Below, piece after piece: positions 60,203 through 62,905 of a stretch of 64,000 bases of DNA (position 1 is the first letter of the stretch; every line of letters starts with the position of its first letter). The stretch lies in the sequence record NC_012638.1; one strand, 5' to 3'. The translations under genes were made by a program, and so were the position numbers. Below the pieces are notes generated by a model. The model was not told where the DNA came from, searched no databases, and saw only the letters and a list, made by a program, of their open reading frames with translations. This DNA is from Escherichia phage RB14.

Positions 60203-60523
60203 TTATTCTTTAAATCTAATCAATTTATTCATAGACTTTGAAACTTCTGCACGAACCTCATGTAAGTTTTTAAGCTGTTCAAGACGCTGCTCATAGTAAG
60301 CAATTTCATCTTCTTCGAGACAGTCCTGTGAATCTTCTTTAAGATAACGTGCATAGTCCTGAAAAGCTTTACGGACTACTTCCTGGAAGTCATCAAGACT
60401 TTGAATTTTCTTAGGAGCGGCAGATACACGACGAGGTGCAGTATAATACTCATAACCAAACCCTGCACTTAATTGAGCCATTAGTATTTTTCCTCTGGTT
60501 GGAACACTGCACGACAAGCCCAC
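60203..60523 (-). CDS. hypothetical helical protein, 92-106 aa
   Basis: ORF table; probable start at the internal Met ([13 protein letters not shown]...). Confidence 0.5.
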
Positions 60524-60783
60524 ATACTGGCTTCTTTGAGTTTCGTTTTAGCAATAGTTAACTGATCGAGGCTTTCAGCATAATTCTTCGCGAGTTCATC
60601 ATCTTCACAGCTATCGAATGCTTCCCAGAATTCATCGTATAAAGCATCAAAGATAAGTCCTAAACGAACTTCAGCGTCTTTGATAGCATTCACTTTACCG
60701 ATTTTCTCTTCAGTATGCGGCTTATAACCTTTAATGTCTTCAATCATATTTGACTTCCTCACCAGTACATAAATCATATTCAA
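60481..60783 (-). CDS. hypothetical protein, up to 100 aa
   Basis: ORF table; start uncertain. Confidence 0.45.
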
Positions 60784-60961
60784 CTAAACGAATAGGTTCA
60801 TGAATGCCATATCCTTGAACAGAAATTTCTGTCGTAGGATAAATTCCATCAATATCACCCATATTCCAGGCTTCATTAAATTGCTGTTCGCCTGAATTAC
60901 TAAACCACTCGGCGAAAGCATTTAGCACATCTTTAGAACCTTCAATAATTATCTTTGCCAT
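60740..60961 (-). CDS. hypothetical protein, 73 aa
   Basis: ORF table. Confidence 0.45.
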   Translation of the reverse strand: MAKIIIEGSKDVLNAFAEWFSNSGEQQFNEAWNMGDIDGIYPTTEISVQGYGIHEPIRLVEYDLCTGEEVKYD

Positions 60962-61323
60962 TACAAACTCTCAGTAAAGGTACGAGCGATAACGTCGCGC
61001 TGCTGTTCCGGAGTCAGAGAGTTAAAGCGAACTGCATAACCGGATACACGGATGGTCAGCTGCGGATATTTTTCCGGATGCTTAACTGCATCTTCCAGAG
61101 TTTCACGACGCAGAACGTTAACGTTCAGGTGTTGACCACCTTCAATTTTAACTGTAGGTTGTTGCTCAATTTCAATTTCACGGGCATGCAAACCATAGAA
61201 AATTTCTGGGTCTACAAAAGAGTCCTCTTTAAAGGTTTTAGAGACAATAATTCGTGCTTGAATATCATCTTCAAAATAAATAGTACCTTTATGTGTGCCT
61301 TCAAGAATTTGATATGCTTTCAT
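60961..61323 (-). CDS. autonomous glycyl-radical cofactor (GrcA/YfiD-like), 120 aa
   Basis: C-terminal 60-65 aa including the RVSGYAVRF glycyl-radical motif identical to E. coli GrcA as I recall; the 3' 190 bp are GC-rich with host-like codons. Confidence 0.75.
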
Positions 61324-61330
61324 ATAAACC

Positions 61331-61660
61331 TCAATTAGAAAATAAATTTATCCAAGATTGTTCTTTAATTAAAAATGGCTCAGAATCATATGCCATTAAA
61401 CTTTGGGTGATTAGTCCTTTAAAAGGTCCATCAATAAATTCCATGGTAAAATATGGAATTTTATTCATTAGCCGTGCATTAGGAGCAGTACACAAAACTC
61501 TGCATCCTTTGAATACGCCTTTTTGTAATTTGTATTGCTTGGGATAAAATTCGCTTAAAATGTTGTTATTTGCCAAAATTTCAAAATGATTTACCAATTT
61601 ATTTTTAATAGTTTTTGGCGAAAAATAGAGATATTCGAAAAGCTGCGTGTCTGTCATCAT
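61331..61660 (-). CDS. hypothetical protein, 109 aa, translationally coupled to the upstream P-loop gene
   Basis: ATGATG start overlaps the upstream TGA stop. Confidence 0.5.
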
Positions 61661-62244
61661 TGCATTCCGATTACGAAAAACTGCGGACGAGTAATACCAC
61701 CAATGCAACATTTACTATTACAGCAGTAGTGTACAGTGTCAATATGGACGCTATAAATCTTATCCATATCAGGAGATTTGACAGGCTCATCAATTATATA
61801 CAAAATTCGCGAAAGCGATAAACCTCTGAACTTGCTTCCTTTATTACCAATAAAACTGCGCACAGAATCAGTAAATAAACGAAAACGTATATCATCATTA
61901 GAATAACGCGAAAATTCCTTTTTAATGTTATTTGCAGAAATTTTAGCGTAAGCTGAAGTATTAGAAAGAACAATAACTGTTCCGCCATCATACAGCCAAT
62001 TAGCGGCAAAGTTAGTCACAGCAATTGATTTACCGGATTGACGTCCACCATCTATACGAAGTGTGCAGTACTGTTTAAGTAATTCTTCAAATGGCGGGAT
62101 ATATTCGTTTTTACAAATTTCTTCTACTCTAGCATCAGAATGGTGTGTAAAAGCATTCATCAGGGATAGATAAGGACCAGTTAAAAATGTTCTCATTTTA
62201 TTCTCTCTAAATTTGGGCCATTCCATGGCGCATGAATTGTCCAT
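61657..62244 (-). CDS. small P-loop NTPase, about 179-195 aa
   Basis: Walker A GGRQSGKS and Walker B-like ILYIIDEP. Confidence 0.5.
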   Translation of the reverse strand: MDNSCAMEWPKFRENKMRTFLTGPYLSLMNAFTHHSDARVEEICKNEYIPPFEELLKQYCTLRIDGGRQSGKSIAVTNFAANWLYDGGTVIVLSNTSAYAKISANNIKKEFSRYSNDDIRFRLFTDSVRSFIGNKGSKFRGLSLSRILYIIDEPVKSPDMDKIYSVHIDTVHYCCNSKCCIGGITRPQFFVIGMQ

Positions 62245-62337
62245 TTCTGTATTTACCCATTACCGCACTCAGGCTCGACCTTATTACAGGTTGGCGGGAA
62301 TCCCTCATAGAATCATGAGGTCCAGGTTGTTCCCATA

Positions 62338-62811
62338 TTATTTGAACGATTTAACGTACTGAATAGAACCTTTACTATTCACAAAGGCAATTTTACCATT
62401 TTTGTTATACATGGTAGCAGTACGTTGATAGCCATAAGTTTGTTTACCAGATTGATAACCAACTAATGCAAAATTATCTTCACCCATTTTATTCTGTTTA
62501 GCACGAATGCGTTCATGGCCATGTGCCATAAGAACCTTAGCATCACCTGTTGCAATGGATCGACGAGTTTTTTCATCTTCAACTGTATTAACAAAGTCGT
62601 CAAATGAATCAAATTTAGCATGAGATTTATTATACAGTTTTCCATCTACTGCATAATTATATCCTTGTACATCCATCTCAACTTCTGTACCATCATCCAA
62701 TACAGCAGTGATTTTCTGTCCTTTTTTAAATTTCAAAAGATCAGTAAAAGATTCAGCAATAATTTGAGAATTAATAGCTGCTTCAGTAATAAATTCTTGA
62801 TATGTTTTCAT
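62338..62811 (-). CDS. capsid internal protein with capsid-targeting sequence, 157 aa
   Basis: N-terminus MKTYQEFITEAA matches the T4 internal-protein targeting sequence; locus next to e as for ipII/ipIII. Confidence 0.65.
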   Translation of the reverse strand: MKTYQEFITEAAINSQIIAESFTDLLKFKKGQKITAVLDDGTEVEMDVQGYNYAVDGKLYNKSHAKFDSFDDFVNTVEDEKTRRSIATGDAKVLMAHGHERIRAKQNKMGEDNFALVGYQSGKQTYGYQRTATMYNKNGKIAFVNSKGSIQYVKSFK

Positions 62812-62905
62812 GTGTATCCTTTAAATGTAAATATTTTAATTAATAATTTATCTCTTCAAATAACTGTGAATATACTATCACAATTCTAGGAGAAAGTAAA
62901 TAACT

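Follow-up and report, generated by a model that had tools for sequence, protein, structure and literature searches.

Two overlapping minus-strand open reading frames of Escherichia phage RB14 (NC_012638.1) were found, with high confidence, to be the orthologues of the bacteriophage T4 early genes vs.8 and vs.7, as judged from sequence comparison. This confidence applies jointly to the identity of the genes and to the mechanism proposed for them. The vs.8 product would be an active NTPase, probably oligomeric, with Arg124 acting in trans. The vs.7 product would be made by coupled translation at an ATGA overlap and would most likely serve as a stoichiometric partner or regulator of vs.8. Together, they would form a conserved coupled pair in the vs.8-to-vs.3 early gene string of T4-like phages. 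The pair is already known, and is ordinary for a T4-like phage. Annotation of these genes in T4 dates from the 1980s. As a discovery the pair is thus minor, the genes being long annotated and the terminase-like nature of vs.8 having been published in 2026.

The window, the whole 64,000-nt stretch of DNA that was analysed, corresponds to the leftmost 64 kb of a T4-like genome (Tequatrovirus). ORF scanning and inspection of the raw sequence confirmed the arrangement described in the initial annotation, a minus-strand P-loop ORF (GGRQSGKS, ILYIIDEP) overlapping a 109-aa ORF. Taken from its first ATG, the P-loop frame spans 61657..62244 (-), encodes 195 aa, and carries both DGGRQSGKS and ILYIIDEP. 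In BLASTP comparisons, the 109-aa product (61331..61660, minus strand) was identical to T4 Vs.7 at 108/109 residues (99%), and the 195-aa ORF was 92% identical to T4 Vs.8, with about 98% identity over a 179-aa core (98.3% in one T4 record). Tblastn revealed that the T4 proteins tk.4, vs, vs.1, regB and vs.3 to vs.8, then e and nudE, are colinear in the window. The position of vs.8 is orthologous: as in T4 and RB27, the gene has the variable ip/denV segment on one side and vs.7-vs.6 on the other. In the curated RB27 genome the junction of the two genes is identical, and the genes are named vs.7, vs.8, and Ip4. The adjacent vs.6 gene (60961..61323, minus strand), which encodes a GrcA-like glycyl-radical protein (Pfam Gly_radical, E 2.7e-18) 97.5% identical to T4 vs.6, starts 7 nt downstream of vs.7. 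Profile searches gave the same assignment. The phrog_1488 profile matched vs.8 with E 5.3e-79 over positions 2-177 of 177, and PHROG 1488 was matched by 37/37 aligned vs.8 homologues; phrog_2049 matched vs.7 over its full length (E 3e-54), and the homologues of vs.7 carry the Pfam family PF26834 (Phage_T4_Y06J) in precomputed tables. A megablast search with the locus matched 825 phage records.

The initial annotation had placed the pair in a hypervariable locus, at the site where T4 has vs.7/vs.8, denV, and ipII. BLASTP, gene order, the flanking vs.6, and the 4-nt overlap instead identify the pair as vs.8/vs.7 themselves, so that both proteins match conserved T4 vs.x genes of this locus. It is therefore extremely improbable that a lineage-specific cassette replaced T4 vs.7/vs.8, denV, and ipII here. 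This candidate was rejected, since both proteins are direct T4 orthologues with identical flanks, and only the denV/ip segment differs. The variability is confined to that segment, between vs.8 and e, on the upstream side of vs.8, and does not depend on the vs.8/vs.7 pair.

Two observations of the initial annotation on this neighbouring segment were borne out. Tblastn with T4 DenV found no match in the 64-kb window even at E<=10, in agreement with the reported absence of denV from the window, and T4 IPIII gave no match there at the same threshold. The match of T4 IPII to the window was limited to the capsid-targeting leader at the N-terminus of the one internal-protein gene. This gene, at 62338..62811 (-), encodes an Ip4-type internal virion protein (Pfam DUF7412, E 5.7e-96; PHROG 3155, 'internal virion protein'; RB27 counterpart 'Ip4'). 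It is the sole gene between vs.8 and e, an interval that contains no denV, ipII, or ipIII, and one internal-protein gene is indeed present instead of two. The Ip4-only arrangement without denV is common to many relatives, such as RB27, vB_EcoM_112, and KAW1E185, which also argues against a cassette particular to this lineage. Other phages show other combinations: teqhad has Ip4 and denV in the segment, and APCEc01 has ip, denV, and ip. The missing denV and the single Ip4-type gene are thus a separate, known, and common polymorphism of the adjacent variable segment. A search of the complete genome of RB27 likewise showed denV to be absent, and Tequatrovirus genomes of this kind indicate that the UV-repair endonuclease V is dispensable in nature.

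The true start of vs.8 is probably the methionine of a conserved MRTFLTG sequence at position 62196, which gives a gene of 179 aa at 61657..62196 (-). Several findings led to this assignment. The first 32 residues of T4 Vs.8 matched the window, in tblastn, in another frame than the remainder of the protein, and the DNA upstream of MRTFLTG was 127/136 (93%) identical to that of T4 in an ungapped alignment, with divergence just before that ATG. In several genera the homologous proteins begin with M-[RKN]-TFLTG, and a Shine-Dalgarno-like GAGAG motif is located 9 to 5 nt before the ATG at 62196. The in-frame extension to the first ATG of the 195-aa ORF (62197..62244, minus strand) is probably an untranslated 5′ leader, and its 16 N-terminal residues are probably not part of the protein. 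In the T4 reference annotation, Vs.8 starts 40 codons further upstream and is 219 aa long, in contrast to the 179 aa of the window gene. That start is probably mis-annotated, because in the window the extension is not in frame, and the homologues of other genera do not have it.

The region between the internal-protein gene and vs.8 (62197..62337, minus strand) appears as a conserved non-coding leader, the 127/136 identity being to the T4 sequence downstream of denV. The presence of an RNA element in this 141-nt leader was considered and rejected: folding revealed no significant structure (z = -0.06), and no Rfam match was found. Scans of the vs.8/vs.7 locus for sigma-70 promoters and terminators gave sites no more numerous than in shuffled sequences.

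The junction between the two genes reads GGAATGCAATGATGACAGAC in the window, with the TGA of vs.8 at 61657-61659 and the ATG of vs.7 at 61658-61660. The 109-aa ORF (MMTDTQ...) begins at an internal methionine, at 61660, of a longer frame (61331..61711). The resulting ATGA stop/start overlap at 61657..61660 (-), contained in the sequence GGAATGCAATGATGAC shared by the window and T4, is the site of translational coupling, and the initial annotation was correct in describing the P-loop gene as coupled to the downstream ORF. In T4 the 4-nt overlap is at 64253-64256. The GGAATGCAATGATGAC junction was found, with minor upstream variants, in phages of the genera Mosigvirus, Gaprivervirus, Karamvirus, and Jiaodavirus; the overlap together with the junction GGAATGCAATGATGA is kept in these four genera and in one metagenomic contig (L005), and a second contig (L004) keeps the overlap within a more divergent junction. 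The 4-nt overlap is thus retained across five Tevenvirinae genera. In Yersinia phage MHG19, the gene that begins at this ATGA overlap is vs.5-like and not vs.7, and in another metagenomic contig a gap of 151 nt separates vs.8 from a vs.5-like gene downstream; vs.7 was not found in either of these loci. Because a vs.5-like gene follows vs.8 where vs.7 is missing, the coupling may reflect the vs.8 3′ end itself, and need not prove that the two genes function as a pair.

Both genes are widely distributed. Tblastn identified vs.8 homologues, one copy each, in 1008 phage records and vs.7 homologues in 921, the hosts including Escherichia, Shigella, Klebsiella, Enterobacter, Yersinia, Salmonella, Citrobacter, and Serratia. 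An exhaustive hidden Markov model search of 1.84 billion representative proteins returned only 41 vs.8 clusters, nearly all of 170-180 aa, and by these searches the vs.8 family is compact and, in the loci inspected, restricted to phages. The dN/dS values relative to T4 were 0.023 for vs.7 and 0.094 for vs.8, and that of vs.8 relative to a Mosigvirus was 0.10; judged by these ratios, both genes are under strong purifying selection. In T4, vs.7 and vs.8 have been reported as early RNA and early protein (PMC9697503 supplements). The low dN/dS, together with these expression reports, establishes the two as real genes and not chance ORFs.

In a CRISPRi-ART study of T4, both vs.7 and vs.8 were scored 'Not Fit', with no fitness cost upon knock-down (PMC11879866). 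The guides directed at vs.8 were placed on the mis-annotated start, which precedes the true one by about 100 nt, and dispensability is consequently less certain for vs.8 than for vs.7; the T4 annotation has in this way misplaced guides used for fitness scoring. The accessory character attributed to the genes in the initial annotation is correct, and vs.8 and vs.7 are dispensable accessory proteins made early in infection. In a separate study, a T4 segment with vs.3 to vs.8 was cloned, and plasmids expressing Vs.3 to Vs.8 singly were constructed under the vs.8 promoter (PMC13243611). Among the six proteins tested singly, only vs.3, the sponge TadIV-1, blocked type IV Thoeris, and toxicity was suspected only for another segment (PMC13243611). 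Homologues of vs.4 carry the Acb2_Tad1 hairpin family. The vs.3 and vs.4 sponge genes are located 0.6-1.1 kb downstream of the pair, on the same strand.

These data bear on the suggestion that the pair might form a toxin-antitoxin-like module, in which the P-loop protein would be the toxin and the 109-aa protein the antitoxin, or the reverse. The architecture, two small overlapping genes of which one encodes an NTPase, is the feature that recalls such modules. The genes are, however, present in single copy and fixed synteny in about 1000 lytic phage genomes and are under purifying selection, and vs.8 is kept without vs.7 in some lineages (MHG19 and the metagenomic contig). Plasmids expressing each T4 gene alone could be built (PMC13243611), and knock-down of vs.7 was without fitness effect (PMC11879866). 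The only PADLOC match of vs.8, to HerA (E 0.017), was not significant, vs.7 had none, and NCBIfam gave nothing. Fixed synteny, the occurrence of vs.8 without vs.7, the single-gene clones, and the lack of a knock-down phenotype make a toxin-antitoxin function very improbable.

The P-loop NTPase assignment made for the larger ORF is supported by its motifs and by a predicted RecA-like fold. The Walker A motif, or P-loop, GGRQSGKS comprises residues 50-57 of the 179-aa protein (62026..62049, minus strand), and Gly51, Arg52, Gln53, Gly55, and Lys56 are invariant or nearly so in 37 homologues. The Walker B motif LYIIDEP, residues 132-138 with Asp136 and Glu137, is encoded at 61783..61803 (-) and was located from the sequence and from alignment with the T4 large terminase subunit, gp17. 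Between these motifs, homologue alignments and the gp17 alignment revealed an F-R-G motif containing Arg124 and Gly125 (61822..61830, minus strand). Both residues are invariant in 13 closer vs.8 homologues, and Gly125 is nearly invariant in the 37-sequence alignment. Arg124 is a candidate arginine finger, for which a trans-acting role is suggested by analogy with terminases.

An AlphaFold 2 (AF2) model of vs.8 computed with the 37 diverse homologues reached a pLDDT of 85.8 and a pTM of 0.85; with only the 13 close homologues, the pLDDT was 53. In the model, two helices at the N-terminus precede a RecA-like core of five strands, with which the protein ends. The 179 aa form one domain, and the two tandem RecA-like domains of an SF2 helicase are not present. 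Foldseek searches of the PDB with this model found generic ASCE matches only, with TM < 0.5, and profile searches of PDB sequences gave only sub-threshold P-loop matches. In the predicted model, the fold similarity is generic for ASCE/RecA domains. The neighbours in BFVD were uncharacterised proteins, all small, from jumbo phages and other T4-like phages.

A more specific relationship was suggested by comparison with the terminase. Alignment of the vs.8 family with T4 gp17 by hhalign gave a probability of 87% (E 3.7e-6) over gp17 residues 158-262. The Walker A motif of vs.8 was aligned with gp17 S161-R-Q-L-G-K-T167, such that R52-Q53-S-G55-K56-S57 pairs with gp17 Arg162 to Thr167. F-R124-G125 was aligned with gp17 V244-R245-G246, 11 residues before the catalytic Glu256, and D136-E137 was aligned with gp17 D255-E256 of the Walker B motif (M251-IYIDE256). 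All three terminase-type features, namely the P-loop arginine, the arginine before Walker B, and the D-E pair, were thus found in vs.8 by hhalign. PHROG 2, 'terminase large subunit', was matched by 26/37 vs.8 family members, and Pfam Terminase_6N by 22/37 relatives, all of them sub-threshold (best E 6.8e-5); vs.8 itself did not reach the gathering threshold of Terminase_6N (PF03237), scoring 12.7 bits against a cut-off of 22. The C-terminal RNase H-like nuclease domain is absent, vs.8 ending at residue 179 after the last core strand. By these profile comparisons, vs.8 is closest in sequence to gp17, the large terminase subunit, and specifically to its ATPase core. The protein is predicted to be an ATPase core of terminase type that stands alone and whose active site appears intact. 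Vs.8 is itself no terminase. The homology to the T4 terminase ATPase and the conservation of Walker A and B in vs.8 have already been reported by Evans et al. (Nat Commun 2026; PMC13601566).

In one reading, vs.8 would be a minimal ATPase of translocase or helicase type that acts early in infection on DNA or RNA of the phage or its host, with vs.7 as its substrate adaptor; alternatively, vs.8 might modulate proteins of packaging or recombination, such as gp17. Every fold neighbour is a nucleic-acid motor (SF2 RecA1 domains, terminases, RecD, and phi29 gp16), the catalytic motifs are intact, and BFVD contains comparable small stand-alone proteins from jumbo phages and other T4-like phages. Yet a single RecA domain of 179 aa offers no evident nucleic-acid-binding module, vs.8 is expressed early and packaging is late, and no knock-down phenotype was recorded. 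A nucleic-acid accessory function is on balance unlikely, without being far-fetched.

The vs.7 protein was less readily placed. Its conserved core has the form Y-x-x-x-x-G-P-F-K-G...E-F-I-x-G-P-x-K-G-L-I, in which the G-P-F-K-G motif is duplicated. The homologues were taken from phage records, word-index searches having given few full-length sequences. Profile searches detected no relatives of vs.7 outside its own family (PF26834, PHROG 2049), a PDB profile search gave one weak, non-significant match, and Pfam scans gave no match with a Pfam copy that does not include PF26834. Two candidate relationships were rejected. The G-P-F-K-G motif resembles the KOW motif of NusG/RfaH, but hhalign against E. 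coli NusG returned a probability of 0.6%. The idea of a split terminase, with vs.7 as the equivalent of the gp17 portion after the ATPase core, was assigned a probability of 0.1% by hhalign against full gp17, and vs.7 resembled no part of gp17.

Published work also links vs.8 to the terminase sensor EcAvs2. T4 vs.8 emerged when T4 proteins were screened against this sensor with AlphaFold 3; its co-expression with EcAvs2 was toxic, and vs.8 triggers this sensor (PMC13601566). The authors suggested that activators such as vs.8 might be anti-defence proteins; vs.7 goes unmentioned in that paper (PMC13601566). The most likely role of vs.8 and vs.7 is, putatively, in host takeover or counter-defence.

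A counter-defence function in particular, with vs.8 alone or together with vs.7 as an early anti-defence factor, is a possible role within the explanation preferred here, and is proposed tentatively. In one version, vs.8 would mimic the terminase ATPase and compete for, or blind, terminase-sensing receptors; in another, it would use ATP hydrolysis to remove or remodel a component of host immunity. The sensing of vs.8 by EcAvs2 would then be a secondary evolutionary development. This role is consistent with the early expression of both genes, with the costless knock-down in a laboratory host, and with the neighbouring sponges, vs.3 being TadIV-1 (PMC13243611) and vs.4 of the Acb2 type. It is also consistent with the recognition of vs.8 by EcAvs2, the authors of that study having suggested that non-terminase activators of this kind may be anti-defence proteins (PMC13601566). 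On the other hand, neither vs.8 nor vs.7 is known to inhibit any defence system, and of Vs.3 to Vs.8 expressed singly, vs.3 was the only one to impair type IV Thoeris (PMC13243611). The pair is near-universal and slow-evolving in T4-like phages, unlike typical anti-defence genes with their fast turnover, and binding to Avs2 activates Avs2, to the harm of the phage. A more elaborate form of the idea is improbable: vs.7 would form a complex with vs.8 and cover the face of it that resembles the terminase, and the early pair would occupy or blind Avs1-3 and Upx before gp17 appears. If it were true, the activation of EcAvs2 by vs.8 alone would be an artefact of omitting vs.7.

Among known systems, the closest counterparts of the window genes are those of T4 itself. 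T4 Vs.8 (UniProt P13318, Y06K_BPT4; PHROG 1488) shares its motifs, its neighbours, and the overlap with vs.7, and T4 Vs.7 (UniProt P13317, Y06J_BPT4; PF26834; PHROG 2049) has no notable difference from the vs.7 of the window. Compared with the RecA1 domain of SF2 proteins (DEAD-box, RIG-I-like), vs.8 lacks RecA2 and the helicase motifs beyond Walker A and B, and the identity is 9-18%. With the terminase ATPase domain (gp17 N-terminal, Terminase_6N), vs.8 shares the RecA-like core, the P-loop R-Q-x-G-K-[ST], and an R-G motif that precedes the Walker B D-E by 11-13 residues; according to published work, the terminase sensor EcAvs2 recognises both. It differs from gp17 in its length of 179 aa, in the absence of a nuclease domain and of any counterpart of the sequence after the ATPase core, and in its early expression, gp17 being late. 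A further parallel is provided by the non-terminase Avs2 activators Ksap1 and Ksap2, which, like vs.8, are phage accessory proteins that resemble the terminase ATPase and trigger Avs2 (PMC13601566), but which occur in other phage taxa than vs.8.

The vs.8 start annotated in the T4 reference, which gives a protein of 219 aa, is probably an annotation error, because the N-terminal extension that it adds lies in a different frame in the window and is missing from the homologues of other genera. The extra 5′ part of the reading frame spans 62197-62244 in the window and 64793-64912 in T4 (NC_000866). In the published CRISPRi-ART knock-down screen, the guides against vs.8 were placed at T4 64887-64937, on the false start, and the "Not Fit" score of this gene may therefore not reflect a real knock-down.

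The leader upstream of vs.8 (62197-62337, minus strand) includes a 136-nt stretch with 93% identity to T4, despite the different preceding gene (Ip4 in the window, denV in T4). The leader contains a 7-bp hairpin, CCUCAUG/UAUGAGG; no significant RNA structure and no Rfam match were found over 62197-62337. It may be the site of the vs.8 promoter employed in PMC13243611.

No denV is present between the internal-protein gene and e in the window (62812-62905), and the close relative RB27 shares the window's junction. A tblastn search of the whole, complete RB27 genome (NC_025448; E ≤ 10) revealed no DenV homologue; thus, Tequatroviruses that naturally lack denV exist.

At the 3′ end of vs.8, the stop/start junction GGAATGCAATGA (61657-61660 in the window) was also found in the Yersinia phage MHG19 locus (L003, 4519-4522), where it is retained although a vs.5-like gene, rather than vs.7, lies downstream. 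The overlap seems to be bound to the last vs.8 codons (I-G-M-Q-stop). The window vs.5 is an intact 73-aa ORF (60740-60961, minus strand) with 45% identity to its MHG19 homologue. The T4 reference copy (58 aa), listed as a PHROG singleton in the CRISPRi-ART supplementary table, looks frameshifted, since its match to the window vs.5 falls in two separate frames. Two published anti-defence sponges, vs.3 and vs.4 (60203-60747, minus strand), lie a short distance downstream of the vs.8/vs.7 pair: vs.3 (60203-60481, minus strand) is 97% identical to T4 Vs.3, the anti-type IV Thoeris protein TadIV-1, and the Acb2_Tad1 hairpin family was found on homologues of vs.4 (60481-60747, minus strand).

The vs.8 homologue bears a terminase label in some deposited genomes, either plain "terminase large subunit" or the more guarded "putative large terminase subunit"; in others vs.7 and vs.8 are named "endoribonuclease RegB", a wrong carry-over from the adjoining regB. 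Examples of such records are those of phages JLBYU22 (OK272484) and Roth68 (PQ657815).

The BFVD matches to the Vs.8 model were small, uncharacterised proteins of about 145-175 aa with a similar single RecA-like fold, encoded by T4-like phages of Aeromonas, Acinetobacter, and Vibrio, and also by the jumbo phages phiRSL1, 201phi2-1, PhiPA3, and Phabio. This spread of fold matches suggests a broader superfamily of stand-alone mini-ATPases of large myoviruses.
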